Below are positions 1 through 60,021 of a stretch of 64,000 bases of DNA, in pieces. The notes under the pieces are model-generated. The model was given only the letters and a program-made list of their open reading frames with translations, did no database searches and had not been told where the DNA came from. How positions within the stretch are numbered: position 1 is the first letter of the stretch; each line of letters begins with the position of its first letter. Both the position numbers and the translations under genes were made by a program. Source of the stretch: an uncultured virus (IMG/VR IMGVR_UViG_2061766007_004329) (taxonomy: Duplodnaviria; Heunggongvirae; Uroviricota; Caudoviricetes); the IMG/VR virus record IMGVR_UViG_2061766007_004329, one strand, 5' to 3'.

Positions 1-1572
1 TCACTCCCCCACAACCACATCAATACCCCCGACGAAGGTGAAAACGATTCTGTCCTTTGTATAGACCGTCACATGGTCTACAATTCCGCCCCAGAGCTCT
101 TCATCGAAAACTGTCTGTTCTCCATCAATTGTCATAAGATTGGCGATAAAGATTCGGATGCGCTCACTCAGTACAGTTTTCTCTCTTTTCTTTGCCTTTA
201 TCTCCTCCCGCCGTGTCCGTTTTGTATCATAGCGATCATAGACGGCATTGTATTTCTGGTTATACTCGTCCTGCTCCTGATCTACATGAGCGTTTTCCAC
301 AATGAGACGGCGAAGCTCTTCCTCTAAGATCGTGATCTCCTGGTCTAGCTGCTTCTTCTCCTCATCCAGGGTAGAAGTGTCAGAAACCAACTGCCCGAGC
401 TTTCCCAGATTGGCAATGACCTCTTCCTTCTCCCCTATCATCTGATTCAGGGCTTGCAGAAAAAGTCGCTTTATATCCTCTTCTGTCAGATGCGGTGTCC
501 CGCATTTTTGCTGACGGCGATATTTCTGATTGCACTGATATATGATCCTGCGGTACTTGTCCGTGGAATGCCATACCTTTTTGCCATACCACCCTCCACA
601 TTCTCCGCACTTGATTCTCGATGCGAATACACTAGCGCCGCTGTAATATGTGCCCTTGCCACCGCGCTTCTTCAACTCAGACTGCACCAGTTCAAAGGTT
701 GACGGGGCTATAATCGGTTTATGATGCTCCTCCACATAATACTTGGGAATTTCGCCCTCGTTTTTCTTTCGCTTCTTCTGGAGGAAATCCACAGTATAAC
801 CTTTCTGCAGTAAGGCACAACCTTTGTATTTCTCGTTCATAAGGATTGATTTTATTGTAGAAACAGACCATGTGTCCTTTCCACAGGGCGTTTTCAGGCC
901 ACGGCTTTTCAGTTCTTTTGTGATGGCATAAAGCGAAAGGCCAGACAGAAAGAGCTTATAGATCAGCATCACAGTCTCCGCTTCTTCTTTGTTTATCACA
1001 AAACCCTTGTCATAGCCAAGAAAATGAGAGTATGCCACACTGGCTTTCCCGTCTGCAAAAGACTTTCGCTTTCCCCAGGTTGTATTCTCAGAAATGCTTC
1101 GGCTTTCCTCCTGGGCAAGACTACTCATAATTGTGATGAGCAACTCGCCTTTGGAATCAAGCGTCCAAATATTCTCCTTCTCGAAAAAGATCTCAACGCC
1201 GTTTTCCTTAAGTTTCCGTACCGTGGTCAGGGAATCGACCGTGTTTCTCGCAAAGCGACTGATCGATTTCGTTATGATGAGGTCTATCTTCCCGGCAAGC
1301 GCATCCTCTATCATTCTGTTGAATCCGTCCCTGTGGAGTGTGTTTGTTGCTGTAATGCCCTCGTCAGAATACATGCCCACAAATTCCCAGTCGTTTCTCG
1401 ATGTGATGTAGGTTCTGTAGTAGTCCATCTGGGCTTCATAACTGGACTGCTGCTCCTCAAGATCGGTTGATACCCGCGCATATCCGGCGACCTTTTTCTT
1501 TTCTGCTGCATAGATTGGCGCTGATGTAAACCTGTTCAGTGTCGCGGGAATCGCTGTTATTCTCTTTGCCAT
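1..1572 (-). CDS. Large serine recombinase (resolvase + recombinase + Zn ribbon + coiled coil)
   Basis: YARVST catalytic motif, TKSISRFARN, CGECG zinc ribbon, coiled coil. Confidence 0.95.
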   Translation of the reverse strand: MAKRITAIPATLNRFTSAPIYAAEKKKVAGYARVSTDLEEQQSSYEAQMDYYRTYITSRNDWEFVGMYSDEGITATNTLHRDGFNRMIEDALAGKIDLIITKSISRFARNTVDSLTTVRKLKENGVEIFFEKENIWTLDSKGELLITIMSSLAQEESRSISENTTWGKRKSFADGKASVAYSHFLGYDKGFVINKEEAETVMLIYKLFLSGLSLYAITKELKSRGLKTPCGKDTWSVSTIKSILMNEKYKGCALLQKGYTVDFLQKKRKKNEGEIPKYYVEEHHKPIIAPSTFELVQSELKKRGGKGTYYSGASVFASRIKCGECGGWYGKKVWHSTDKYRRIIYQCNQKYRRQQKCGTPHLTEEDIKRLFLQALNQMIGEKEEVIANLGKLGQLVSDTSTLDEEKKQLDQEITILEEELRRLIVENAHVDQEQDEYNQKYNAVYDRYDTKRTRREEIKAKKREKTVLSERIRIFIANLMTIDGEQTVFDEELWGGIVDHVTVYTKDRIVFTFVGGIDVVVGE

Positions 1573-3080
1573 GTTTTCACCGTCCCGTCTTTGAATTGAT
1601 ACTGGACACAGTCATTAAAAACAATCGTCCAGTTCACCGTCTCTACGAAAGCAGGCTCATATTCAGTTGTCCCGAGAACAGATGCTGTCGCCCGCCGCAA
1701 TTCCTCCTCGGGTAAACGTTTGAGAGAGCAGCTGCATCGCGGGCCAGTACAACACCAACGATAAGTCTTTTCAACTGATTCTGCTTTATGTAACGCCACG
1801 GTTTTTCTGCAGAGCTTCCAGCCACATTCACCGCAAAACAGTTTCCCGGAAAAACCGTTTCTGACTTTATATCCACCATATTCCCTCACCACGCTTTTCT
1901 TTCTTCCGTTTGCTAACCAAAACTCGAGCCGGTCGCCGAATACGAGTATCCTCTTGACTTGCCTCTGAAAGTTCGTATCATCCACCTTTCCTAATACGCT
2001 GACCGTCGCCTTCTCAAGCTCTGCTTCCATGACGGGACGCATGTCGCATAGGCCCTTGCCTTTCCGCTCCCTCGTGTTGCAAACCCATCTCTTCGCAGAT
2101 TTGAAAGAACGTCTACTGATACCGCTTCCACAGTTTCCACATTTTATCAGCCCGGAGTATTGAGTCGAAACTGCAGAGGCACTCGCCGATTCTTGAGCCC
2201 TTCGTTCCCGTATGGTTTTTGCCTGTTCAAATTCATCCGTCGTAATCAGAGGTTCGAACATCTCTTCGACTGCGTACCGGTTGTATTCTCCTCTATTCCG
2301 TTTACGCACATGATCATCTGTGAAGAAGTTCTTTTGGAGGATCATAGTCCCTGTATAGGAGATGTTTGAAATAATATCCTTAATCGTGGTATCGCACATA
2401 GGGCCGCCTTTCTGCCCTTTTATGCCTCGTTTCTTCAGATTCTTGGCAATACTGTATCCCGATTCTCCGGCGATGTACTGCCGGAATATTTCCTTTACAA
2501 CCTCGCCTTGCTCGGGGATAATGCGGAACATTTCTCCATCCCATTTATATCCATATGGCGCTTTATGTCCGTTGGGTATACCATTCTCGAATCGCTTCCT
2601 GATCGACCATTTGATGTTTGTAGATATGCTCTCGCTTTCCGCCTGTGCGAACGCTGCCAGCAGCGTCAGAAGAAGCTCGCCATCCGCTGAAAAAGAAGAA
2701 ATACCTTCGCGCTCAAACCTGACTTCCACGCCGATATCATTCAGGTGCCGGATGGTCTTAAGGGAGTCTACTGTATCACGTGCCAGTCTGCTGACTGATT
2801 TTACCAGTATTAAATCAATTTTCCCTAAATCACAGTCTGCAATAAGCCTTTTGAACTCGCTCCTGCGGTCAATGCTTGTCCCTGTCACCCCCTCATCGAC
2901 ATAAGCACCTGCATATTCCCATTCGGGATGAGCTTGTATCATCTGCCTGTAATGGCTGACCTGTGCAGAAAGAGAATGAAGCAATGATTCTGTTGCATCT
3001 GAAACCCGGGCATAGGCTGCAACACGTTTCCTGGGTGCAATCTTTGCCGGCGGTGCTATAATCTTACTTATAGTGGGCAT
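1557..3080 (-). CDS. Large serine recombinase, second tandem copy with two Zn ribbons
   Basis: YARVS, KSVSRLARD, CGNCG and CGECG motifs. Confidence 0.93.
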   Translation of the reverse strand: MPTISKIIAPPAKIAPRKRVAAYARVSDATESLLHSLSAQVSHYRQMIQAHPEWEYAGAYVDEGVTGTSIDRRSEFKRLIADCDLGKIDLILVKSVSRLARDTVDSLKTIRHLNDIGVEVRFEREGISSFSADGELLLTLLAAFAQAESESISTNIKWSIRKRFENGIPNGHKAPYGYKWDGEMFRIIPEQGEVVKEIFRQYIAGESGYSIAKNLKKRGIKGQKGGPMCDTTIKDIISNISYTGTMILQKNFFTDDHVRKRNRGEYNRYAVEEMFEPLITTDEFEQAKTIRERRAQESASASAVSTQYSGLIKCGNCGSGISRRSFKSAKRWVCNTRERKGKGLCDMRPVMEAELEKATVSVLGKVDDTNFQRQVKRILVFGDRLEFWLANGRKKSVVREYGGYKVRNGFSGKLFCGECGWKLCRKTVALHKAESVEKTYRWCCTGPRCSCSLKRLPEEELRRATASVLGTTEYEPAFVETVNWTIVFNDCVQYQFKDGTVKTWQRE

Positions 3081-38759: not shown

Positions 38760-40007
38760 TTATTCAGCTGGCCAGGTTTCAGCCACAGCCTCTTCATAGG
38801 AAAGCTCCGTTCCATCGCGGAGCACTTTTACATTTTGGGACGCACCTTCGTGGAACTGAATGTACCTGTCCACAATGACGGAGGCATACCGTTCGTCCAG
38901 CTCCATCGTGTAGCAAATGCGGTCTGTCTGGTCGCAGGCCATGAGTGTGCTGCCGGAGCCGCCAAACAGATCCATAACCACCGCATTCGGTGCGGAGCTG
39001 TTCTTGATGGGGTACGCCACCAGCGGGATGGGCTTCATCGTAGGATGCTCGGCGCTCTTCTTCGGCTTGTCATACTGCCAGATGGTGGTCTGCTTTCGGT
39101 CGGCATACCACTTGTGCTTGCCGTTGGGCAGCCATCCATAGAGCACCGGCTCNNNNNNNNNNNNNNNNNNNNNNNNNNNNTTTGCCCAGATGCACACGCC
39201 GCTCAGGTGAAAGCCGGCCTCCTTGAAGGCTCGCCTGAAGTTGATCCCTTCCATATCCGCATGGAATACATAAGCACTGCCACCCTCAGCCATGTGCGCC
39301 GCCATGTTCCTGAAGGCGGTAAGAAGGAAGTTGAAGAACTGCCCGTCCTCCATGCTGTCGTTCTGGATGCTTTTTCCGTCTGCGGATTCATACGCCACGT
39401 TGTACGGCGGGTCCGTCACCACCAGGTTGGCCTTGATCCCGCCCAAGAGCAGGTCAACATCCTCCTCGTTGGTGCTGTCACCGCACATCATGGTGTGCCT
39501 GCCGATTTTCCAGATGTCCCCGCGCTTCACGAACGGAGCAATGGTCTCCGGATCGGCCTCACACTCGTCATCCTTGACTTCTTTGTCATGCACCTTGCTG
39601 AACAGATCATCCACCTCGGCCATATCAAAGCCGGTTGCCGTCACGTCATAACCGGACTGCTGCAAGTCCTGCAGCAGATCGGCCAGCGCGGTCGGTTCCC
39701 AGTCGCCGGTTGCTTTGTTCAGCGCGATATTCAGGGCTTTTTCGTCCTGCGGGTTCTCGATATGAACCACCACGCAGTCCACTTCCGTCGCGCCTTCATT
39801 GACCAGCACCTTGTAGCGCTGGTGGCCTCCGACGATGTTGCCGGTCACCTCATTCCAGACGATGGGGTCTACATACCCAAAGTCGTGCAGGCTGCGCTTA
39901 ATCTTCTCATAGGCCGAGTCTCCCGGCTTCAGGTCTTTGCGTGGGTTGTATTTCGCGGGCTTCAGCTGATCCACAGGAAGCCGCTTCATCGTCAACTCTG
40001 TTTTCAT
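38760..40007 (-). CDS. ParB-domain N6/N4 DNA methyltransferase (copy 1)
   Basis: YNPR/GGHQR ParB domain, TDPPY, HPTMKP, DLFGGSGST. Confidence 0.93.
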   Translation of the reverse strand: MKTELTMKRLPVDQLKPAKYNPRKDLKPGDSAYEKIKRSLHDFGYVDPIVWNEVTGNIVGGHQRYKVLVNEGATEVDCVVVHIENPQDEKALNIALNKATGDWEPTALADLLQDLQQSGYDVTATGFDMAEVDDLFSKVHDKEVKDDECEADPETIAPFVKRGDIWKIGRHTMMCGDSTNEEDVDLLLGGIKANLVVTDPPYNVAYESADGKSIQNDSMEDGQFFNFLLTAFRNMAAHMAEGGSAYVFHADMEGINFRRAFKEAGFHLSGVCIWAXXXXXXXXXXEPVLYGWLPNGKHKWYADRKQTTIWQYDKPKKSAEHPTMKPIPLVAYPIKNSSAPNAVVMDLFGGSGSTLMACDQTDRICYTMELDERYASVIVDRYIQFHEGASQNVKVLRDGTELSYEEAVAETWPAE

Positions 40008-40018
40008 GTGTCTCTCCT

Positions 40019-41263
40019 TTACTCGCTCACGATCTCCTCAAAAGAAAAGGTCTGGCCTCCGCGAAGGACAGACACATCTTCACTTGTCTCCACCAGGTCG
40101 ATGTACCTCTGCACGATGACCGAAGCATACCGTTCGTCCAGCTCCATCATATAGCAGATACGACTCGTCTGTTCACAGGCAATGAGCGTGCTGCCCGAGC
40201 CGCCGAAGGTATCCAGCACCACAGCGTTCGGCGCAGAGCTATTCTGCAGCGGATAGGCCAGCAGTGGGATGGGCTTCATTGTCGGATGGTCCTTGGAGCG
40301 CTTCGGCTTGTCGTACTGCCAGATGGAACTCTGATTCTTCCCTGCAAACCAGCGGTGCTGGCCGTTGGGCAGCCAACCGAAGAGCACGGGTTCATGCTGC
40401 CACTGGTACGGCGAACGCCCAAGCACCATGCTGTTTTTCATCCAAATACATACACCGGCGATGGCAAATCCCGCCTCCTGAAAGGCCGTCCGGAAGTTCA
40501 GTCCCTCGGTATCTGCGTGGAAGATGTACGCAGACGCGCCTTCGGCCAGGTGAGGTACCCAATTCTGAAAAGCGGCAAAAAGAAAAGCATGGAACTTCTC
40601 ATCTTCCATGCTGTCGTTCTGGATGCTCTTGCCGTCAGCCGATTCATACGCCACGTTGTAGGGCGGGTCCGTGATGACGAGGTTCGCCTTAACGTCTCCC
40701 ATGAGAATGTTGAGGTCGGCAGGGGAAGTAGCATCGCCGCAGTACACGCGATGCGGCCCCAGCTGCCAGAGATCGCCGGGCTTCACGAAGGGTTTGATGG
40801 TGTCTGCACTCAGGTCGGTATCATCGTCTTCCAGGTCATCCACATCCTTCCGCGCCAGTAACGCGTCGATCTCATCATCATCAAAACCGGTCAGGCCGAG
40901 GTTATAGCCGGACTCCTGGAGGTCAAGCAGCAGCGAGGCCAGAGACTGATCTTCCCATTCGCCCACGGCCTTGTTGAGCGCGATATTCAGGGCTTTTTCA
41001 TCCTGCGGGTTCTCAATGTGAACCACCACACACTCAATCTCAGCAGCACCCTCGGCCACCAGGATTTTGAAGCGCTGATGCCCGCCGACGATATTGCCCG
41101 TCACTTCATTCCAGATCAGCGGGTCGACATATCCATACTCGTCCAGGCTGCGTTTGATCTTCTCATAGGCGGCATCCCCCGGCTGCAGGTCCAGACGGGG
41201 ATTGTACTTTGCCGGTTTCAGAAGTTCCACCGGCACACGCCGTGTTTCAATACTCGTTTTCAC
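40019..41263 (-). CDS. ParB-domain N6/N4 DNA methyltransferase (copy 2)
   Basis: Same motifs: TDPPY, HPTMKP, DTFGGSGST. Confidence 0.93.
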   Translation of the reverse strand: MKTSIETRRVPVELLKPAKYNPRLDLQPGDAAYEKIKRSLDEYGYVDPLIWNEVTGNIVGGHQRFKILVAEGAAEIECVVVHIENPQDEKALNIALNKAVGEWEDQSLASLLLDLQESGYNLGLTGFDDDEIDALLARKDVDDLEDDDTDLSADTIKPFVKPGDLWQLGPHRVYCGDATSPADLNILMGDVKANLVITDPPYNVAYESADGKSIQNDSMEDEKFHAFLFAAFQNWVPHLAEGASAYIFHADTEGLNFRTAFQEAGFAIAGVCIWMKNSMVLGRSPYQWQHEPVLFGWLPNGQHRWFAGKNQSSIWQYDKPKRSKDHPTMKPIPLLAYPLQNSSAPNAVVLDTFGGSGSTLIACEQTSRICYMMELDERYASVIVQRYIDLVETSEDVSVLRGGQTFSFEEIVSE

Positions 41264-41435: not shown

Positions 41436-42202
41436 CCGGCACACCTCGGGCGGCCGGNNNNNNNNNNNNNNNNNNNNNNNNNNNNNNNNNNNNNNNNNNN
41501 NNNNNNNNNNNNNNNNNNNNNNNNNNNNNNNNNNNNNNNNNNNNNNNNNNNNNNNNNNNNNNNNNNNNNNNNNNNNNNNNNNNNNNNNNNNNNNNNNNNN
41601 NNNNNNNNNNNNNNNNNNNNNNNNNNNNNNNNNNNNNNNNNNNNNNNNNNNNNNNNNNNNNNNNNNNNNNNNNNNNNNNNNNNNNNNNNNNNNNNNNNNN
41701 NNNNNNNNNNNNNNNNNNNNNNNNNNNNNNNNNNNNNNNNNNNNNNNNNNNNNNNNNNNNNNNNNNNNNNNNNNNNNNNNNNNNNNNNNNNNNNNNNNNN
41801 NNNNNNNNNNNNNNNNNNNNNNNNNNNNNNNNNNNNNNNNNNNNNNNNNNNNNNNNNNNNNNNNNNNNNNNNNNNNNNNNNNNNNNNNNNNNNNNNNNNN
41901 NNNNNNNNNNNNNNNNNNNNNNNNNNNNNNNNNNNNNNNNNNNNNNNNNNNNNNNNNNNNNNNNNNNNNNNNNNNNNNNNNNNNNNNNNNNNNNNNNNNN
42001 NNNNNNNNNNNNNNNNNNNNNNNNNNNNNNNNNNNNNNNNNNNNNNNNNNNNNNNNNNNNNNNNNNNNNNNNNNNNNNNNNNNNNNNNNNNNNNNNNNNN
42101 NNNNNNNNNNNNNNNNNNNNNNNNNNNNNNNNNNNNNNNNNNGTATCAGAAACTACGCAATTCCGACTCCCAAACAACGCTGAAACGACGCTGACAGTTA
42201 TC

Positions 42203-42235
42203 TGGACTTTCCGGCCCCGCGGAGTGATTAATGTG
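42203..42235 (+). promoter_or_regulatory. Putative promoter of the amidoligase operon
   Basis: TGGACT...GAGTGATTAATGT; related motifs at 47397-47425 and 19250-19280. Confidence 0.55.
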
Positions 42236-42301
42236 TCACGGGCCGGAAAACGGCCCCACCGGGCGGGCGGGAAAAGCCGCCGCCGGAAAGGAGCGCGAAC
42301 C

Positions 42302-43192
42302 ATGAACAGCATGAAAGAGCAGACCTTCGGTGTTGAGGTCGAAATGATCCTCTCCCGCGAGAAAGCCGCGAAGACCATCGCCGAGTATTTCGGCACCACG
42401 GCCCGCTACGTCGGCGGCGCCTACCACGCATGGAAGGTGCGCGACCTGCAGGGCCGCGAATGGACGGTCGAGAGCGACGCTTCCATTGATGCTCCGAACG
42501 GGGAGATGCAATGCGAGTTCGTCACCCCGATCTGCCGCTGGGACGACCTCGAAACCCTGCAGGAGCTCATCCGCGAGCTCCGGAAGGCGGGCGGCAAGGC
42601 ACACCGCTCCTGCGGCATCCACGTTCACATCGGCCTCGGGGAGCACACCCCGAAAACCCTCCGGAATCTGGTGAACATCATCAACGCACACGAGGACCTC
42701 CTGACCCAGGCGCTGGCCATCTCCTTCGATCGCCGCGCCCGCTGGTGCAAGCCGGTCGACCCTTCCTTCCTCCAGCGCCTGAACCGGCGGAAGCCCGACA
42801 CCAGCGAAGCCTTCGCCCAGCTTTGGTACAACGACCGCGCCTGGGAATACCACGCACACCAGCACTACGACCCCAGCCGCTACCACCTGCTCAACCTCCA
42901 CGCGGTGTGGCAGAANNNNNNNNNNAGGGCCTTCAACAGCACGCTCCACGCCGGCGAAATCAAGAGCTACGTCCAGCTCTGCGCGGCCATTTCCTTCATG
43001 GCCCTCAAGGCCAGCGCCGCCAGCCCGCGCAGGCCGGTCACCGACAACCCCGCCTACACCTTCCGGTGCTGGCTCCTCCGGCTCGGCATGAACGGCGAGG
43101 AGTTCAAGACCGCCCGCACACACCTCCTGAAAAACCTGCCCGGGAACGCCGCATGGCGCAATGGCACCCCGACCGCCCGACGCACCGCCTGA
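42302..43192 (+). CDS. Phage amidoligase (COOH-NH2 ligase type 2 / Amidoligase_2)
   Basis: TFGVEVE, SDASI, CEFVTP, SCGIHVH, RYHLLN, FNSTLHAGEIK; AAGGAG RBS. Confidence 0.9.
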   Translation: MNSMKEQTFGVEVEMILSREKAAKTIAEYFGTTARYVGGAYHAWKVRDLQGREWTVESDASIDAPNGEMQCEFVTPICRWDDLETLQELIRELRKAGGKAHRSCGIHVHIGLGEHTPKTLRNLVNIINAHEDLLTQALAISFDRRARWCKPVDPSFLQRLNRRKPDTSEAFAQLWYNDRAWEYHAHQHYDPSRYHLLNLHAVWQXXXXRAFNSTLHAGEIKSYVQLCAAISFMALKASAASPRRPVTDNPAYTFRCWLLRLGMNGEEFKTARTHLLKNLPGNAAWRNGTPTARRTA

Positions 43193-43210
43193 TCCGGGCG
43201 AGAACCACAC

Positions 43211-43270
43211 CCCGCCCGACGAGTGCCCGGTGGCTCCGGGCCGAAACGCCCAGCGCGTCGCGGGAAGCCG
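43211..43270 (+). ncRNA. Type I hammerhead ribozyme HHR1 (core variant CCGACGA); predicted cleavage after C43259
   Basis: Stem I CCCGC/GCGGG; stem II G(U)GCCCGG/CCGGGCC; GAAA; stem III ACGC/GCGU; GUC; loop UGGCU pairs with 3' AGCCG. Confidence 0.82.
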
Positions 43271-43301
43271 CACATTTCAGAAATCGAAGGAGGACACACC
43301 C

Positions 43302-43901
43302 ATGAAGAAGACCACCATTGAGCGCATGTACACCGAGAAAGTCGCTGAGCTCCTGAACCAAGGCTGGCGCATCCACACCAGCACCATGCCCGGCCATCAG
43401 GGCGAGATCGCACACGTCGACCTGACCGACGGCTCTGAAATCCGCAGGGCCCTCCTGTGCCGGGAGATGACCTGGGGCCACAGCGACGCCGAATTCTACG
43501 GCCACAAGATCATCATCATGGTCGGGAAGAACACCGACCGGATCTGGCCGGGCTGGGACAGCACACTCTGGAACAACCACATGGAAGTCTGCTCCCAAAT
43601 CGAGCTGGCCGAGATACAGGAGCCCGACCACCATCACCCCGAGGGCTGGTACACCGACATGGCCAGCGCCCAAGATATCCAGCGCATTCGCAATGAGCGC
43701 CGGAGAGCACAGCGCACCCCCACCGAGAAGGCACTCGGCACAGCTTACAAATCGATCGCCCTGCGCTGGCTCCGGAAACAGCCCCGCATGAAGAACACCA
43801 GGCTGGAGGACATCACGAAGGTGATCCGGTACACCAAGCGCGACGGGAGCACCGGCTTCCAAATCGAGGCCAAGGGCAAGATATACACCCTCCACGCCTG
43901 A
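43302..43901 (+). CDS. Hypothetical protein (199 aa) bracketed by two hammerheads
   Basis: AAGGAGG RBS, open frame, stop immediately before HHR2. Confidence 0.85.
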   Translation: MKKTTIERMYTEKVAELLNQGWRIHTSTMPGHQGEIAHVDLTDGSEIRRALLCREMTWGHSDAEFYGHKIIIMVGKNTDRIWPGWDSTLWNNHMEVCSQIELAEIQEPDHHHPEGWYTDMASAQDIQRIRNERRRAQRTPTEKALGTAYKSIALRWLRKQPRMKNTRLEDITKVIRYTKRDGSTGFQIEAKGKIYTLHA

Positions 43902-43902
43902 C

Positions 43903-43962
43903 CCCGCCTGACGATGGCCTCTGGCACAGGCCGAAACGCCCAACAGGGCGTCGCGGGAGCCA
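43903..43962 (+). ncRNA. Type I hammerhead ribozyme HHR2; predicted cleavage after C43952
   Basis: CCCGC-CUGACGA-U-GGCCU(CUGGCAC)AGGCC-GAAACGCCC(AACA)GGGCGUC-GCGGG-AGCCA; canonical core, three stems and pseudoknot. Confidence 0.92.
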
Positions 43963-43997
43963 TCCCGACAGCTTTCAAATCAAGGAGGATTTACACC

Positions 43998-44612
43998 ATG
44001 TGCATCATCTGCGTATCACCCACCGGAGTCCGTCAGCCCAACTACACCACCATCCGCACCATGTTCCGAAACAACCCCCATGGCGCCGGGTATATGTTCG
44101 CCCGGGACGGCAAGGTTCACATCAGCAAGGGATACATGGACATCGACAGCCTGCTCGACGCCCTGCGGTGCGAACACTTCACGAAGAAGGACGCGGTTGT
44201 GTACCATTTCCGCATCAGCACTCAGGCGGGCGTCAGCCCGCAGATGACCCATCCCTTCCCGCTTTCAAATCGACGCGAGCACATGAAGGTGCTGGACCTG
44301 GACTGCAAATGCGGCATCGCACACAACGGCATCATCCGGCTCACCACCGACCCGACCAACAAGGAATACAGCGATACGGCCATTTTCATCACCGACTACC
44401 TCTCCGAAATCATCCGCAAGCCCAGCGACCTGAAAAGCCCCGGAATCCTGAAGCTGATCCAGCGGCTGGCAGGCTCCAAATTGGCGATCATGGACGCGGC
44501 CGGATACATCGCCACGGTCGGGTATTTCATCAACGAGAACGGCCTGCTCTTCAGCAACAACAGCTTCATCATGCCGAAGATCCACTGGACTTTCCCCACC
44601 CAGCGCTCCTGA
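43998..44612 (+). CDS. Class II (Ntn) glutamine amidotransferase-like protein
   Basis: M-C N-terminal nucleophile, NPHGAG, HFRIST, HPF, AHNGII, SDT motifs. Confidence 0.88.
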   Translation: MCIICVSPTGVRQPNYTTIRTMFRNNPHGAGYMFARDGKVHISKGYMDIDSLLDALRCEHFTKKDAVVYHFRISTQAGVSPQMTHPFPLSNRREHMKVLDLDCKCGIAHNGIIRLTTDPTNKEYSDTAIFITDYLSEIIRKPSDLKSPGILKLIQRLAGSKLAIMDAAGYIATVGYFINENGLLFSNNSFIMPKIHWTFPTQRS

Positions 44613-44629
44613 ATCGAGCGCTGGAGTTC

Positions 44630-44704
44630 CCCGCATGACGACGGCTAGAGGAATATAACCGCCGAGGCTCAGNNNNNNNNNNNNNNNNNNNNNNNGGGAA
44701 GCCA
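44630..44704 (+). ncRNA. Degenerate or gapped hammerhead-like element HHR3
   Basis: CCCGC-AUGACGA-CGGC...GCCGAGGC, N-run, then GGGAAGCCA 3' tail. Confidence 0.45.
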
Positions 44705-44737
44705 CACGCTTTCAAATCGAAAAGGAGGAATAATCCC

Positions 44738-44932
44738 ATGATCACGCTCCCACGATACACCTACAATCTCCTGTTCCTGCGCACCGATGGTGAACAGGAA
44801 TTAGTCGAACACGTCACTGAGAAGGAGGCCCGCGAACACCTCGCGCTCTTTGGAGACGGGGACGCGGATATCTACCGGCGAATCGACCTGTATGAGCAAG
44901 ACTGGCTGACCCAAACAAGCCGCCGCTTGGAC
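44738..44932 (+). CDS. Small hypothetical protein (3' end in gap)
   Basis: AAGGAGG RBS; MITLPRYTYN... Confidence 0.65.
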
Positions 44933-44955
44933 NNNNNNNNNNNNNNNNNNNNNNN

Positions 44956-44999
44956 CGGCCCCAGGCCGAAACCGGGCGTCGCCCGGTCGCGGGAAGCCG
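44956..44999 (+). ncRNA. Type I hammerhead HHR4, 3' half (5' half in gap); predicted cleavage after C44988
   Basis: CGGC loop...AGGCC-GAAACCGGGC(GUC)GCCCGGUC-GCGGG-AAGCCG. Confidence 0.75.
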
Positions 45000-45031
45000 C
45001 AAACAGCTTTCAAATCGAAGGAGGATTCATC

Positions 45032-45250
45032 ATGAAGAACACAAATCAGCACACTCTCAGCCTTGAAACCTGCATGGACATTCTCAATTGGTTCAACGAC
45101 AGCAACTATGACTACATCAATCACATCATGACCGCCAAGCTCGACGGCGAGGAGCGGATCAACTGTGCCTTGCCCGCCATTTCAGAATACTGTCTGAATC
45201 TGGTCGACGCCCATCGCGCATCCGACAATGCCTATCCGCTGGAGGTCTGA
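45032..45250 (+). CDS. Small hypothetical protein (72 aa)
   Basis: AAGGAGG RBS after HHR4; MKNTNQHTLS... Confidence 0.7.
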   Translation: MKNTNQHTLSLETCMDILNWFNDSNYDYINHIMTAKLDGEERINCALPAISEYCLNLVDAHRASDNAYPLEV

Positions 45251-45277
45251 CACAGCTTTCAAATTGAGGAGGCCATT

Positions 45278-45460
45278 ATGAATCAGCCCATTGACACATC
45301 CACGCTCATCCAGGCAGTTCTTGAATACGCTGCCGAACACAGCCAGGAGGACGCTTACCAGTCCGTTACCCGGCTTCTTGCCGCCAAACAGATCTCCCTG
45401 GATCAGTGGTATGACAGCATCCACGCCCTGTACCCGGAGGCCCCCACAGAGACGAATTGA
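45278..45460 (+). CDS. Small hypothetical protein (60 aa)
   Basis: GAGGAGG RBS; last gene before the terminator. Confidence 0.65.
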   Translation: MNQPIDTSTLIQAVLEYAAEHSQEDAYQSVTRLLAAKQISLDQWYDSIHALYPEAPTETN

Positions 45461-45487
45461 CTTTTCGCCGCGCGTATGGCAATCCCA

Positions 45488-45510
45488 CCGCCCTTCAGGG
45501 CGGCTTTTTT
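45488..45510 (+). terminator. Intrinsic terminator of the amidoligase operon
   Basis: CCGCCC-TTCA-GGGCGG followed by C and T6. Confidence 0.8.
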
Positions 45511-45856
45511 GCTTTCAAATCGTCGCGGCCACGCTGCCGCCACGTTCGCGCCTGTCCCCAGGAATGGGAAAACCCTCGGCCGTCGGGAAGAAGTGGCGAC
45601 GTGGGCCAATTCCCGCCGCCACGTTGCGAAGCGGCCGGCTTTCAAATCGTCACGNNNNNNNNNNNNNNNNNNNNNNNNNNNNNNNNNNNNNNNNNNNNNN
45701 NNNNNNNNNNNNNNNNNNNNNNNNNNNNNNNNNNNNNNNNNNNNNNNNNNNNNNNNNNNNNNNNNNNNNNNNNNNNNNNNNNNNNNNNNNNNNNNNNNNN
45801 NNNNNNNNNGCTGAAGCGGCGACGTGGGCCAATTCCGGCGACGACGTTCGGTAACA

Positions 45857-45887
45857 AGAAAAGCGACCCGCCGAAGCAAGCCGCTCT
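45857..45887 (-). terminator. Putative intrinsic terminator of the minus-strand unit
   Basis: AGCGGCTTGC-TTCG-GCGGGTCGCT followed by TTTCTT. Confidence 0.6.
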
Positions 45888-45923
45888 CATATTTTCACTT
45901 TTCATGGCGGGCAACTGTCAGGA

Positions 45924-46443
45924 TTACTTCCCGACAACATCCCAGGCTATTTCCACACCGTGACCGGTGTCTCTGAACCGCAGGATCAGGTCGCCGTCCT
46001 GTACCTCATAGCTCACATGAAATGGCTGCCCCCACATCTCCTTCAGGCCCTTNNNNNNNNNNCCGGTATGCTTCGAAATCCGCTTTGCCTTTCTCTTCCT
46101 GCCAGCGCTCAAAGAGCTGGGAAAGGAAAGGCAGCTGTGTGTTCCTGATCTCCTCCCAGGCTTCCGCACCGGACACAGCTTTGAAATCGCCAGCCGGTCG
46201 TTCCGGCTGGAAACAGGCCCAGGAGGTCAGCGGCTTCGGGTTCCGCATGAAGGCAAGCATCGCTTCCTCGGTGCCGCACTGATCGCACACCATGATCCCG
46301 GCGCTTCCAGCCTCCCGGCTGAGAGCGTTGGTGTAGAGCTCCGGCTTCATCCGGTCGAGTCCGCAGCGCGGGCAAACCATGTGTTCACCCGATTCCTGCC
46401 GCGCTTTCAAATCCGCCAGTTTCTGTTTCAGCGTATCATTCAT
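45924..46443 (-). CDS. Hypothetical Zn-finger protein (gapped)
   Basis: CPRCG...NALSR...CDQCG; overlaps the upstream stop. Confidence 0.7.
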
Positions 46444-47366
46444 CTTCTGTCCGCCTCCTCGTTGACCTCTTTCCTGATGCGTCTGATCTCCTTGCATCTG
46501 TCCCTGTGTTTCTGGGCCCTGCTCTCGTCGGGAAAAGCGCAGTAGCCGTCCAGGTTCCCGATCATCAGCCTGCGCAGGGCTCTGGAATCCGGCCCGCCAC
46601 AGCCCAGCCGGATCAGCCAGCTGTACATGAAGTAGCGCTCGTTCTCCGGCTTTTGCAGCACCGGCCTGGTGCGCCTGGTGCTCATGGCGCAGTGTACTAT
46701 CCTGGTCAGCAGGTCTGCATACAATGTCCATTTCTCAGGAGTGTGTTCATCCTGGGGAAATGCCATCGTCACTTTGCCATCCTCATAGGAGAAACCCTGG
46801 AGTTCGTCAAGGCTCCAGGCGTCCTTCAGGATCCTCTCAAATTCCTCAAGGCTCTCCGGGGTATACTCCTGAAGCCGGGTGACCAGCTTCTCCGTGATCC
46901 TGAGCTGTGGCTCACCGAACGCCCGGTTCAGCAGGTGCTGTTTCGTATAGAGCATGAACACCAGGTTTTTCAGAGCCAAGATTGTCATATCCGGCACCGG
47001 CATCCCGATGACCATGAAGCTTCCATCGTCGTCTGTGACGTGCGGCACTTCGGAATCCCCCGCGGCTTCCTCTTCGGCGTTCTCTTCGACCTCCCCTATG
47101 GCGTTCTCTGCATTGACCTCGTGGGGTTCAGCCTGCGCTTCGAAATCCTCAGCCTTCGCATAGCCGTTCTCGATCAGGAAATCCCGCAGCGGCGTGATGT
47201 CCTCGCAGACAATGCTGCCGTCCCCTTCGATCGTGTAAGGGCCAACCTTGTAGGATCGGGAGGGCATCCCGTTGTAGACGGAGCGGACACCCAGGTGCAC
47301 AGCGAGCGCTTTCACCAGCTCCTTGCGGTCGAAGGTTTCGGCTTCTGTGTGTTTACTGAATCGCAT
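46440..47366 (-). CDS. Phage 'virulence-related protein' family, with amidoligase-like C-terminal domain
   Basis: RKELVKAL...YNGMPS N-terminus; NERYFMYSWLIRLG...NLDGYCAF C-terminus. Confidence 0.75.
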   Translation of the reverse strand: MRFSKHTEAETFDRKELVKALAVHLGVRSVYNGMPSRSYKVGPYTIEGDGSIVCEDITPLRDFLIENGYAKAEDFEAQAEPHEVNAENAIGEVEENAEEEAAGDSEVPHVTDDDGSFMVIGMPVPDMTILALKNLVFMLYTKQHLLNRAFGEPQLRITEKLVTRLQEYTPESLEEFERILKDAWSLDELQGFSYEDGKVTMAFPQDEHTPEKWTLYADLLTRIVHCAMSTRRTRPVLQKPENERYFMYSWLIRLGCGGPDSRALRRLMIGNLDGYCAFPDESRAQKHRDRCKEIRRIRKEVNEEADRR

Positions 47367-56916: not shown

Positions 56917-58086
56917 TTACTGTGCAAAATCGGAAGCTGCGCTGGAGATCGCCTGCCGGGGATCTGAAATCGGCACCAGCATCGGAGCGCCTTCGGGCTT
57001 GTACACCAGATCACCGAGCACATCTTTGAACGCCTTTCTGCCCATGCGCTTCTCCAAATCTCCCACGCCCAGCAGCGTGGTCTTGTAGATGTCTGTGTAC
57101 CCGGCGTCAGTACATGCCCTGATGACCTCGGCTTCGCTGGTGTATTTGCGGACGGTGCGTCCGGCCACCAGCTTGTAGCCAGTCCACTGTTTGCCCTCAA
57201 CGGCCTGCTGCGTCGCAAAGGCGAGAAGGTCCTGAACCCAGTTGTTGAGCGCCTCGGCGATGGGCAGCATGTCGGCGATTTCCTCGTCGGTCAGCAGATC
57301 GGGCTGTTTGAAGTCCCGCCTGGCCAGCTGCATGAAATACTCGCTGCGGGCGCGGCAGGTGTGACGGGCCTTGCACCACCGGCAGTGTTCACCGGCGCAG
57401 AACTCGCCTTCGCCCTTCTGGGCCAGCAGCGCCCTCGGGTGCAGGTATTCGTCCGCCCACCTGATCAGCTCGTCCGCGCCCATCTCGAAGGAGGAGATGT
57501 TCTGAAGACGGGGCTGCACGATGGTCATGCGCAGCGTCCTGATGTCGTACAGCGGATCGAACTCCAGCAAAGCTCCGAGACCGTACAGCATCAGCTGGCT
57601 GTTGTGGTCGGCGTTCACACGAACCCCGCGCCCGCCCTTGAAGTCGATGACTTCGATCACGCCGTCCGCAATGGCTATAAAATCGCCGGTGCCGAAGCCA
57701 CCCGGCACATACTTGCTGAAGTCCAGCCTGTGCTCCACGGCGATGTAGGGATCAGGGCAGGACAGACGGATCGCCTCGATGATCTCAATGCAGTGATTGA
57801 CGTACACATCGGTGACCTCTTCGGCCTCATCCGTGTAGAAATCGCTGTTGCGGTGTTCGGCGTACTGACGCTCGATCACGTCAGGCGTCATGTCGCCCAG
57901 ATACCTGTGGAGCTTCAGCTCGCACAGCTCGTGGAGGAACGTGCCTTCCTCGGCGAACACTGAAGGCTTGTCCTGAAACTGTGCCGACAGCATGGCGCTG
58001 GGGGTACACTTGAGCCAGCGCTCAGAAGAGGAGGGCCCTAGCTCCGAGTGGCTGCGTTCACTGTGCTGAATGACCTGATCTTTCAC
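56917..58086 (-). CDS. DUF2800 Cas4-like PD-(D/E)xK nuclease, copy A
   Basis: SSERWLKC, GFGTGD, IDFKGG, QLMLY, HCRWCK...C. Confidence 0.9.
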   Translation of the reverse strand: MKDQVIQHSERSHSELGPSSSERWLKCTPSAMLSAQFQDKPSVFAEEGTFLHELCELKLHRYLGDMTPDVIERQYAEHRNSDFYTDEAEEVTDVYVNHCIEIIEAIRLSCPDPYIAVEHRLDFSKYVPGGFGTGDFIAIADGVIEVIDFKGGRGVRVNADHNSQLMLYGLGALLEFDPLYDIRTLRMTIVQPRLQNISSFEMGADELIRWADEYLHPRALLAQKGEGEFCAGEHCRWCKARHTCRARSEYFMQLARRDFKQPDLLTDEEIADMLPIAEALNNWVQDLLAFATQQAVEGKQWTGYKLVAGRTVRKYTSEAEVIRACTDAGYTDIYKTTLLGVGDLEKRMGRKAFKDVLGDLVYKPEGAPMLVPISDPRQAISSAASDFAQ

Positions 58087-58493
58087 AGCTTATTCACCTC
58101 ATCCATGAGTGGGCCATACTTGTCTTCAGGCAGCTCGGTCAGCTTCGACACGCCGAAGCCCTTTAGGATCGCCTTGATTTTTCCCCTGTTTTCCGGTTTC
58201 GTGCGCTCGGCAACAAAGGCGCGGACCTCTGTGATGGTGTACTTCTTGGCGGGCGGGGTGTTCGTCGGTGTCGGCTCATTCGCCAATGAAGCCTCGGCTT
58301 CAGCGACCCACTCGGGATCGACCGTCGTCTTGCCGGTAATTTCTGCCGCTTCGTTCTCAGCCTTCTTCGCGGCCAGCTGCTCCGCACAGTCGTCCACCAC
58401 GATCTGCATCGCTGCCGCCATCGCCTGCGCTTCATCTGCCATTGCCTGCGCATGGCTGGCAATGTCGGCCAGCATCTTCAAGCTCATCGTCAT
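58083..58493 (-). CDS. Phage hypothetical protein, copy A
   Basis: GVSKLTELPEDKY C-terminal motif. Confidence 0.75.
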   Translation of the reverse strand: MTMSLKMLADIASHAQAMADEAQAMAAAMQIVVDDCAEQLAAKKAENEAAEITGKTTVDPEWVAEAEASLANEPTPTNTPPAKKYTITEVRAFVAERTKPENRGKIKAILKGFGVSKLTELPEDKYGPLMDEVNKL

Positions 58494-58644
58494 TTCCTTT
58501 TCCTCCTTTTTAGTAGTCGTACTGTGCCAGTTCCCGGAGCTTGTCCGCCATGTCGTCCTGCTCCCAGGGAAGGTTGAGATCGGTGCGCCCGTAATGTCCG
58601 TACACGGAGATCAGGCTGTAGCTCGGCGTGGTCAGCTTGAGCCG
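58490..58644 (-). other. Second, divergent copy of the metK 3' end next to a gap
   Basis: Similar to 60439-60575 (YGH.GRTDLNLPWEQDDMAD). Confidence 0.7.
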
Positions 58645-58654
58645 NNNNNNNNNN

Positions 58655-58813
58655 CTCTTCGATGGCGGCTTTGATCTCGCCGACTGTTTTGCTGTCGGAC
58701 TTGGGGATGATGAGCGACAGGGAATACTTGGGGTCGGAGCCGTTCACGCTCTGCGGCTCGAAGATGTGTACGAAAGACGCGCGGCACTTGCCTGTGATAA
58801 CTTTGGTAGACAT
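58655..58813 (-). CDS. DUF2815 N-terminal fragment truncated by a gap
   Basis: MSTKVITGKCRASF..., as in 56879. Confidence 0.7.
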
Positions 58814-58851
58814 AATATCTTTCCTTTCTCCCCTCTATGGGGTGTTCGCCT

Positions 58852-60021
58852 TTACCATTCAAAATCGGAAGCCGTGGCTGATAAAGCCTGCCGGGGATCG
58901 GACACCGGTACCAGTGTAGGCGCGCCTTCTGGCTTGTACACCAGTTTGCCCAGTACGTCCCGGAAAGCCTTCCTGCCCATGCGCTTTTCCAGATCGCCCA
59001 CACCCAGCAGCGTGGTCTTGTAGATGTCCGTGTACCCGGCGTCAGTACAGGCTTTGATGACCTCAGCCTCGCTTGTGTACTTCCGGACAGTGCGTCCCGC
59101 CACCAGCTTGTAGCCAGCCCACTGTTTGCCCTCAATGGCCTGTTGCGTTGCAAAGGCCAGCATGTCCTGCACCCAATTGTTGAGCGCTTCAGCGATGGGC
59201 AGCATGTCGGCTATCTCCTCGTCGGTCAGCAGGTCGGGCTGCTTGAAATCGCGCCTGGCCAGCTGCATGAAATACTCGCTGCGGGCACGGCAGGTGTGGC
59301 GGGCCTTGCACCAGCGGCAGTGTTCGCCCGCACAGAACTCCCCCTCGCCCTTCTGCGCCAGCAGCGCTCGCGGGTGCAGATACTCGTCTGCCCACCTGAG
59401 CAACTCGTTGGCATCCATCTCGAAGGAGGAGATATTCTGGAGCCTGGGCTGCACGATGGTCATGCGCACGGTCTTGATATCGTACAGCGGATCAAACTCC
59501 AGCAGGGCGCCCAGGCCGTACAGCATGAGCTGGCTGTTGTGATCCGCATTCACCCGGACTCCGCGCCCGCCTTTGAAATCGATCACCTCAATCACGCCAT
59601 CCGCGATGGCGATGAAATCACCTGTGCCGAAACCATCCGGCACATATTCGCTGAAATCCAGCCTGTGTTCCACTGCAATATAGGGATCTGGGCAGGACAG
59701 GCGGATCGCTTCGATCACTTCAATGCAGTGGTTGACGTACTCATCGGTGACTTCTTCGGCCTCATCCGAATAGAAATCGTTGTCCCGATGCTCTGCATAC
59801 TGGCGTTCAATGACGTCCTGTGTCATGTCGCCGAGATACCTGTGGAGCTTCAGCTCGCACAGTTCATGGAGGAATGTGCCCTCTTCGGCATAGACCGAGG
59901 GCTTATCCTGAAACTGCGCTGACAGCACTGCGCTGGGCGTACACTTGAGCCAGCGTTCTGAGGACGAAGGGCCAAGCTCCGAGTGCCCGCGCCCACTGTG
60001 CTGAATCACCTGGTCTTTCAC
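58852..60021 (-). CDS. DUF2800 Cas4-like nuclease, copy B
   Basis: Same length (389 aa) and motifs as copy A. Confidence 0.9.
   Translation of the reverse strand: MKDQVIQHSGRGHSELGPSSSERWLKCTPSAVLSAQFQDKPSVYAEEGTFLHELCELKLHRYLGDMTQDVIERQYAEHRDNDFYSDEAEEVTDEYVNHCIEVIEAIRLSCPDPYIAVEHRLDFSEYVPDGFGTGDFIAIADGVIEVIDFKGGRGVRVNADHNSQLMLYGLGALLEFDPLYDIKTVRMTIVQPRLQNISSFEMDANELLRWADEYLHPRALLAQKGEGEFCAGEHCRWCKARHTCRARSEYFMQLARRDFKQPDLLTDEEIADMLPIAEALNNWVQDMLAFATQQAIEGKQWAGYKLVAGRTVRKYTSEAEVIKACTDAGYTDIYKTTLLGVGDLEKRMGRKAFRDVLGKLVYKPEGAPTLVPVSDPRQALSATASDFEW

Follow-up and report, generated by a model that had tools for sequence, protein, structure and literature searches.

What do hammerhead-shaped RNA elements do when they occupy one spacer after another of a single phage operon? 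The question is raised by a stretch of DNA of 64,000 nucleotides from an uncultured virus of the Caudoviricetes (IMG/VR record IMGVR_UViG_2061766007_004329; hereafter the window, meaning the whole stretch analysed), in which a plus-strand accessory operon of six genes, A to F, carries such elements, E1 to E4, in four successive intergenic spacers. The reading that we favour, with a probability of roughly 0.7, is that the operon holds an array of pseudoknot-stabilised type I hammerheads that would cut its polycistronic transcript into gene-sized mRNAs. As far as sequence can tell, the hammerheads of the window are genuine members of a type I ribozyme family.

The spacers hold the elements about where the initial annotation had placed them, as is seen both in the sequence itself and in a search with R1, a covariance model built from 96 pattern-found sequences (Table 1); with filters off, the 64 kb yielded on both strands no other R1 match better than E 0.3. 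The order of the parts is that of type I, namely the 5' strand of stem I, the core, hairpin II, GAAA, hairpin III, UH and the 3' strand of stem I, and in both E1 and E2 stem I is open and stems II and III are closed by loops. E2 is the canonical copy, with a stem I of 5 bp, the full core CUGACGA at 43908-14, hairpin II, GAAA, hairpin III and GUC, just as had been described for it; its tail AGCCA pairs with loop II, and its minimum-free-energy fold is exactly the hammerhead three-way junction. E1 also has all three stems, stem I being formed by 43211-15 and 43260-64, and a tail, AAGCC, complementary to loop II; its core carries U4C, on which the initial annotation did not remark. The readable part of E4 comprises the 3' strand of stem II, GAAA, a stem III of 6 bp, GUC, the 3' strand of stem I and the tail AAGCC, and the element is probably complete. 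In E3 one reads a stem I strand, the core AUGACGA (C3A), 31 nt unlike a normal stem II and atypically long, 23 N and a 3' tail of the usual kind; shuffled sequences fold just as well as the readable part (z +0.58), about a third of the element reads N, and we lean towards regarding E3 as impaired. The core C3 U4 G5 A6 N7 G8 A9 is thus full in E2, changed at one position each in E1 and E3 and hidden in N in E4, and G12, A13 and A14, the A15.1-U16.1 pair and C17 in its GUC context are present in E1, E2 and E4 and read N in E3. Stem III differs among E1, E2 and E4 and stays paired in each, as had been claimed, and our own count of the C17 positions gives the same predicted cut sites as had been proposed, after 43259 in E1, 43952 in E2 and 44988 in E4.

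Across the relatives of these elements, the three stems and the pseudoknot between loop II and the 3' tail covary. The model statistics cover 101 R1 matches in 76 loci, 90 of them distinct, and 11 of the 16 pairs show double-sided changes, with 203 cells so changed as against 69.7 in shuffles, a value that none of 500 shuffles reached. In the same alignment 92.3% of the pair cells are standard, where shuffles give 77.2% and slid partners 33-44%; the alignment was fitted to the structure and is favoured by that, whereas counts from the raw pattern are free of such bias. Apart from the core and GAAAC, the scan pattern fixes nothing but GTCGCGGGA, which is the stem I 3' strand, and it is matched by at least 120 stretches in IMG/VR. 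Among the matches listed, stem I is completed by the unspecified upstream bases in 104 of 117 distinct ones, and 94 of 118 have a hairpin of at least 4 bp in every gap that the pattern leaves free, about 10 of the 118 being unstructured; by rough arithmetic, chance alone would give the looser pattern a few tens of matches in IMG/VR. The core heptamer CUGAYGA is kept in 95 of the 101 R1 matches, and the sole varying position is position 4, with C in five and A in one. Extended by four stem I bases, the pattern has at least 150 matches in bacterial genomes, those listed belonging mostly to gut and rumen Clostridia (Christensenellales, Oscillospiraceae, Limiplasma) and in a few cases to Desulfosporosinus, Paenibacillaceae and cyanobacteria.

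The layout as an array is also found in relatives. Seven of these, L004, L005 and five more, were found via the ORF C protein alone (ORF, open reading frame) and are thus unbiased with respect to RNA. The two closest, L004 and L005 (78% and 75% identity), have four hammerheads each around the same genes, and at the position equivalent to E3 both have canonical hammerheads, of 55.9 and 51.5 bits; in the five relatives at 51-58% identity hammerheads were not found. A blastn search of 42926-44672 (1.7 kb) against phage genomes matched two Heliusvirales phages of Christensenellales, each with a minus-strand ParB gene, a plus-strand amidoligase operon and hammerheads in its spacers, and it matched Faecalibacterium phage FP_Brigit over 63 nt of E2 only (88.9% identity, intergenic). 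The initial annotation had pointed to homologous prophages as the place to look for the layout and for covariation, and both are present there. Two pairs of elements in relatives may be mentioned in their own right. L004 carries near-identical hammerheads at 1109-1192 and 1406-1489, about 300 nt apart and with GUA instead of GUC at the cut site, which looks like a recent cassette duplication. The pair at 1497-1573 and 1885-1961 of L033 shows compensated stem I changes (UCCAC/GUGGA) and a U-A second stem III pair (U15.2-A16.2, GAAAUG...CAUC), and one of the two carries a CAGACGA core (U4A).

Arrays of this kind have been described before. Perreault et al. (2011, PMC3088659) report hundreds of bacterial hammerheads near prophage genes, in prophages with several copies around one gene or a short block of genes; self-cleavage was shown in vitro for three of these arrays and in E. 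coli for one, the bacteria with arrays being Clostridium scindens, Azorhizobium caulinodans and Agrobacterium tumefaciens. According to the same source about 40% of natural hammerheads have stem I and stem II joined by a pseudoknot, core variants stand beside canonical copies, and the suggested role is the processing of long phage transcripts into mRNAs of gene length. Whereas the initial annotation was aware of no characterised function here, both arrangement and processing proposal are already in print; the ribozyme layout has been known in prophages since 2011, and the locus adds no new mechanism. What the window shares with those arrays is complete hammerheads in successive spacers of one prophage transcription unit, the pseudoknot, the core variants and the suggested processing role. 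It differs in that one sequence-conserved type I subfamily, with stem I CCCGC/GCGGG, is involved throughout, in a Heliusvirales-like phage of gut Clostridia and in an amidoligase/Ntn-amidotransferase operon, with a conserved 5' hairpin and a CUYYCAAAU leader downstream. Modest additions to this knowledge are the link to amidoligases, the 5' hairpin, the leader motif and the recurrence of U4C copies. The text of the supplement of PMC3088659 has 0 occurrences of the subfamily 9-mer and of 'amidoligase', a count that is not evidence of absence since sequences may be broken up there, and the main text of the Heliusvirales paper (PMC11283538) has 0 occurrences of hammerhead, ribozyme or amidoligase. 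A review of 2019 (PMC6765202) considers that processing could yield transcripts of different stability, its purpose being unproven, and treats the role of self-cleaving ribozymes in bacteria and phages as still open.

In the mechanism that we propose, each ribozyme would fold during transcription of the operon, with its stem I of 5 bp formed and loop II paired with the 3-5 nt past stem I, and would then cut after GUC at the sites given above. The upstream piece would end with the compact ribozyme body and a 2',3'-cyclic phosphate, and the downstream piece would start with a 5'-OH and with GCGG, which could re-pair with a nearby conserved CCGC into a 5'-terminal hairpin. After the cut the short stem I is expected to open and the new 5' end to be captured, so that re-ligation would be disfavoured and the end shielded. 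Past the hairpin would come the CUYYCAAAU leader motif and then the ribosome-binding site, and in this way a single transcript could be turned into gene-sized mRNAs with defined, protected ends. E2 is expected to be fast and E1, with its U4C core, slower.

Several features beyond the catalytic core are consistent with this scheme. The pseudoknot pairs GGCU with AGCC in E1 and UGGC with GCCA in E2, joining loop II to the 3-5 nt past stem I, and covarying examples in the family include GGUC/GACC and GCGGAA/UUCCGC; among 99 distinct elements the complementarity between loop II and tail averages 4.0 bp, as against 3.65 +/- 0.06 with permuted tails. The downstream cleavage product starts with GCGG, and CCGC follows within 18 nt in 74 of the 99 elements, compared with 4-21 of 99 for other tetramers of the same composition. 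A 5'-terminal hairpin of at least 4 bp is possible in 85 of the 99, versus 31.6 +/- 4.4 with shuffled tails, and the predicted downstream products of E1, E2 and E4 fold into one. This conserved hairpin on the downstream cleavage product is possibly a new detail of the family.

The leader motif, GCTTTCAAATC, stands between cut site and ribosome-binding site. It has 7 exact copies from 43971 to 46403, all on the plus strand, where our own arithmetic gives about 0.03 expected by chance, and copies lie just 5' of the ribosome-binding sites of C, D and E and, with one mismatch, of F. In the family the relaxed form CTYYCAAAT occurs 11-21 nt past the cut in about 28% of the members and in 2.1% of random segments, a comparison in which the ratio is usable and the raw numbers are not, most elements being listed twice by the pattern. 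In the predicted folds of the products the CUUUC of the motif pairs with the ribosome-binding site. Further copies, exact or with one mismatch and always on the plus strand, are seen at 43743-43753, 43855-43865, 44261-44271, 46178-46188 and 46403-46413, which places them in ORFs B and C, in minus-strand coding sequence and beyond the terminator. Because copies lie inside ORFs and past the terminator, a purely translational role as a leader is insufficient. The CUYYCAAAU leader after many elements may likewise be a new detail of the family, and together with the 5' hairpin it makes testable predictions for mRNA stability and translation.

Some upstream genes appear to stop inside the ribozyme. 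In the relatives, 59 of 193 elements have at least 80 open codons upstream in the frame that ends at the core UGA, while the other two frames give 25 and 25; this implies such an overlap for part of the elements, and a stop codon inside the ribozyme core is seen directly in L132 and L002. The homologue of ORF D in L132, 62% identical, terminates at the UGA within a hammerhead core; the stop codon of ORF D itself falls inside a stretch of N.

A number of observations weigh against self-processing by the array. The consensus core is present in E2 only, so that the array described in the initial annotation stands as a covarying type I family and is less uniform than had been suggested; U4C makes for lower activity in vitro, and with C3A the C3-G8 pair is lost; and with parts of E3 and E4 reading N, two of the four elements are only partly checkable. 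The case for the 5' hairpin rests on conservation: the stem I strand lacks its initial GCGG in just 1 of 150 elements, and with a single deviating element covariation of the hairpin has no test power. Plus-strand transcription of the operon is a presumption, and its expression in the lysogen, as the initial annotation has it, is likewise conjectural. RNA-library contigs of relatives bridge the cut sites of both E1 and E2; this check used Logan contigs in public RNA runs, with at most 12% of the sampled words present, and such contigs show no RNA ends. The bridging contigs may represent DNA carry-over, uncut RNA or antisense RNA.

The curated RNA models are also on the negative side. None of the Rfam hammerhead families RF00163, RF00008 and RF02275-7 reaches its gathering score in the 64 kb window, and none gives a match at E<=10 in 42100-45700, so that the Rfam search suggested by the initial annotation fails where R1 scores E1, E2 and E4. 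Given each element alone, RF00163 (Hammerhead_1) reaches 11.0 bits on E2 and 10.6 bits on E1, where its gathering score is 34, and by Rfam the two are not members. RF00163 nevertheless aligns to both over its full length (1-45 of 45), with core, GAAA and cut site in register. Rfam also misses the canonical copies in L001-L003, FP_Brigit among them, and because a canonical relative is missed as well, the negative result reflects the model and not the RNA. The subfamily to which the locus belongs is very large, conserved in sequence and carried by abundant gut phages, and it goes undetected by the standard RNA library, and an Rfam-negative result in phages of Clostridia should not be read as absence of hammerheads.

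How much of the array is active depends on what the changes in E1 and E3 mean. The positions concerned do not otherwise vary in 95 of the 101 family matches, which fits an array that is partly decayed, in which E2 and perhaps E4 would cut and E1 and E3 would be dead relics serving as structured spacers only. For E3 this has some force: the C3A pattern has 0 matches in IMG/VR, and the R1 score and fold of the element are those given above (E 0.43, z +0.58); its run of N, however, bars one from calling it dead. For E1 the evidence points elsewhere. A scan aimed at C4 turned up 16 more such elements in IMG/VR, of which 15 have a stem III of at least 4 bp and 11 a stem II of at least 5 bp by a simple count that misses bulged stems, and their pseudoknot partners covary, as with GACU/AGUC in L144. 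One of them, L141, is otherwise identical across the ribozyme to the U4 element L108, as expected of a recent point mutation, and because of this identity some C4 variants may be recent mutations. Yet C4 occurs in at least 16 sequence-diverse elements with stems and pseudoknot intact, and comparable variants are not seen at other core positions. On these sequences, U4C is a recurrent natural variant of the subfamily and E1 probably a live but slower ribozyme. A viroid hammerhead with the same change at core position 4 is weak in vitro and reportedly functional, indeed sufficient, in vivo, as cited by Perreault et al. (PMC3088659); unlike the viroid case, the variant here recurs in at least 16 phage-borne elements besides E1, in arrays that also hold canonical copies. 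We regard partial decay of the array as possible, though clearly less probable than a working one.

The cassettes of ribozyme and leader, of which about 100 nt are conserved, might instead serve chiefly as recombination junctions for gene exchange, with cleavage secondary. E2 is the sole part of the 1.7-kb query that matches FP_Brigit, where the flanking genes are unrelated; the gene content between hammerheads varies, L004 and L005 having extra small ORFs between B and C; L004 has its two near-identical hammerheads; and in Perreault et al. the flanked genes are not constant either (PMC3088659). Against this, selection on the RNA maintains the core and every pairing, and a role in DNA recombination needs no such selection, which leaves recombination as the chief function an improbable reading. 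That the elements are non-cutting conserved RNA structures, such as 3'-end stabilisers, protein-binding sites or attenuators that resemble hammerheads, would suit the lack of any Rfam match at threshold and the contigs spanning both cut sites, but it is very unlikely, as 95 of 101 relatives preserve the catalytic residues (CUGAYGA, GAAA, A15.1-U16.1, H17) with stems free to vary, which is the signature of a working hammerhead, and similar arrays from bacteria undergo cleavage both in vitro and in E. coli (PMC3088659).

If the array does process its own transcript, the unit can be viewed, tentatively, as a composite intercistronic cassette made of a ribozyme, a decoy of the stem I 5' strand, the CUYYCAAAU leader and a ribosome-binding site. 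After cutting, the decoy copy would capture the new 5' end in a hairpin, and the leader could pair with the ribosome-binding site. We speculate that such cassettes insulate accessory genes bolted into the phage, especially the amidoligase/Ntn-amidotransferase module, that U4C copies might set product ratios, and that stops at the core UGA might couple termination to ribozyme folding; we consider this whole picture less likely to be right than wrong. Synthetic insulators of the RiboJ type combine a hammerhead and a hairpin before the ribosome-binding site, and cleavage gives them a defined 5' end independent of what lies upstream. The cassette of the window differs from these in being natural, in occurring in tandem in one operon and in having a hairpin that reuses the 3' strand of stem I, and for it the function is only proposed.

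The genes between the ribozymes give the operon its identity. ORF A is an amidoligase, as had been annotated: against PF12224 it scores 199 bits with a cut-off of 22 and covers profile positions 1-244 of 245. ORF C is also in line with the initial annotation, which had placed an amidotransferase-like protein in the operon. Searches of its sequence gave no match in Pfam, NCBIfam or the PDB and no function in PHROG, and the fold search alone was informative: its AlphaFold model (pLDDT 87.5) matches in Foldseek the glutaminase domain of GlmS (1xff, E 8.6e-6, TM 0.59) and also the glutaminase domains of PurF and EgtC, all matches lying at E 9e-6 to 1e-3 and TM 0.5-0.6. M1 and C2 are invariant among 18 homologues, and 3 of 120 homologues among the matches listed bear the JGI name 'predicted glutamine amidotransferase'. 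The model thus matches a predicted class II (Ntn) fold, with which amidotransferase and hydrolase activity are alike compatible. In relatives, B, C and E have homologues arranged in the same order, and the subfamily as a whole offers a tractable test bed, with a fixed gene set (amidoligase, B and the Ntn protein) and canonical and U4C ribozymes side by side.

We also asked how often hammerheads of this subfamily accompany amidoligase genes. The count is based on 102 non-redundant locus groups, with loci of at least 2.5 kb that were retrieved only via the RNA pattern and grouped by shared 150-mers; an earlier grouping by shared 40-mers merged unrelated loci through the conserved elements and was replaced. 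An ORF A homologue lies within about 3 kb in 20 of the 102 groups, and in 10 of 20 groups with at least three hammerheads as against 6 of 70 with a single one, the groups being phylogenetically non-independent; ORF B homologues adjoin amidoligase genes in 12 of the 102. Pfam recognises an amidoligase in 6 of 18 array loci and genes of the GGACT family in 2 (L172, L072), both counts being lower bounds that result from a greedy choice of ORFs. From these counts, hammerhead arrays appear enriched beside amidoligase genes, which is possibly new and a modest addition to knowledge; a full-text literature search found no paper joining 'hammerhead' with 'amidoligase'. Iyer et al. are said to have described in 2009 cassettes of amidoligase, amidotransferase and gamma-glutamyl cyclotransferase genes in phages and mobile elements. 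The operon resembles such cassettes in that a PF12224 gene adjoins a gene for an Ntn-type amidotransferase-like protein and GGACT-family genes occur in the related arrays L172 and L072, and it differs in its ribozyme-punctuated layout, which is unmentioned in the literature searched.

The operon sits in what PHROG scans of 48 long ORFs identify as a siphovirus-type prophage whose phage genes are read on the minus strand, with recognisable lysis, tail and head modules. The large terminase shares 84.9% identity with its counterpart in the Christensenellales phage NatCom_6392, classified as Ca. Heliusvirales, and the element in the window is, by its gene content, a Heliusvirales-like siphovirus prophage. 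The ribozyme operon lies between the ParB-domain methyltransferases and the replication module, opposite in strand to the flanking phage genes, and the earlier description of the unit as antisense to the lytic modules is borne out by the PHROG scans. Runs of N interrupt the window, two of them inside the third and fourth spacer elements and one of 685 nt just 5' of the operon. The unit had further been credited with its own terminator and a promoter-like motif: an intrinsic terminator does close it, and no sigma-70-like promoter was found for it, the 685 nt upstream of 42143 reading N.

Table 1. Positions of the operon, its ribozyme elements and the main phage features in the window
Feature	Position	Strand	Basis
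ORF A, amidoligase, 296 aa	42302..43192	+	Pfam PF12224 Amidoligase_2 E 1.5e-58; PHROG 2443 'amidoligase enzyme' E 9e-94
E1, type I hammerhead, U4C core CCGACGA	43211..43270	+	model R1 54.9 bits, E 1.5e-12 (match 43208-43283)
ORF B, 199 aa, no assigned function	43302..43901	+	PHROG 38037 E 4e-20
E2, canonical type I hammerhead	43903..43962	+	model R1 66.6 bits, E 1.3e-15 (match 43900-43976)
Leader motif GCTTTCAAATC	43971..43981, 44708-18, 45006-16; 45255-65 (1 mismatch)	+	11-mer scan
ORF C, Ntn/class II glutamine-amidotransferase-like, 204 aa, N-terminus Met-Cys	43998..44612	+	AlphaFold and Foldseek
E3, hammerhead-like, C3A core AUGACGA, partly N	44630..44704	+	model R1 11.0 bits, E 0.43, not significant
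ORF D, at least 65 aa	44738..44955	+	ORF list and sequence
E4, 3' half of hammerhead, 5' half N	44956..44999	+	model R1 20.2 bits, E 0.0017 (match ends near 45012)
ORF E, 72 aa, no assigned function	45032..45250	+	ORF list; homologues in same operons of relatives
ORF F, 60 aa, no assigned function	45278..45460	+	leader motif upstream, no hammerhead upstream
Intrinsic terminator closing the operon	45488-45510	+	6-bp all-G-C stem, then T run
Two adjacent serine integrases	1-3080		PHROG
Terminase	36.7-38.7 kb	-	PHROG
Two ParB-domain DNA methyltransferases, tandem near-duplicates	38763-41263	-	PHROG 498
Replication module	46-62 kb	-	PHROG

A few observations concern the surroundings of the operon. 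In NatCom_6392 a tRNA gene (60.4 bits; L003 2502-2572, minus strand) lies between the ParB gene and the amidoligase operon, at a place where the window reads N. Besides the methyltransferases, a second tandem near-duplicate pair, of exonucleases (PHROG 69), occupies 56920-60021 on the minus strand. Facing the ribozyme operon is a second, divergent amidoligase homologue at 46443-47366 on the minus strand (PHROG 2443, E 1.5e-20), which overlaps the annotated minus-strand ORF 46009-46731, so that one of the two genes probably has a misplaced start. Just past the terminator, the non-coding and partly N region 45511-45850 has GCTTTCAAATCGTC twice more in exact form, along with a direct repeat of 36 nt (86% identity, copies 223 nt apart) that includes the inverted repeat ACGTGG...CCACGT; an origin, a regulatory region or small RNA genes could lie here.

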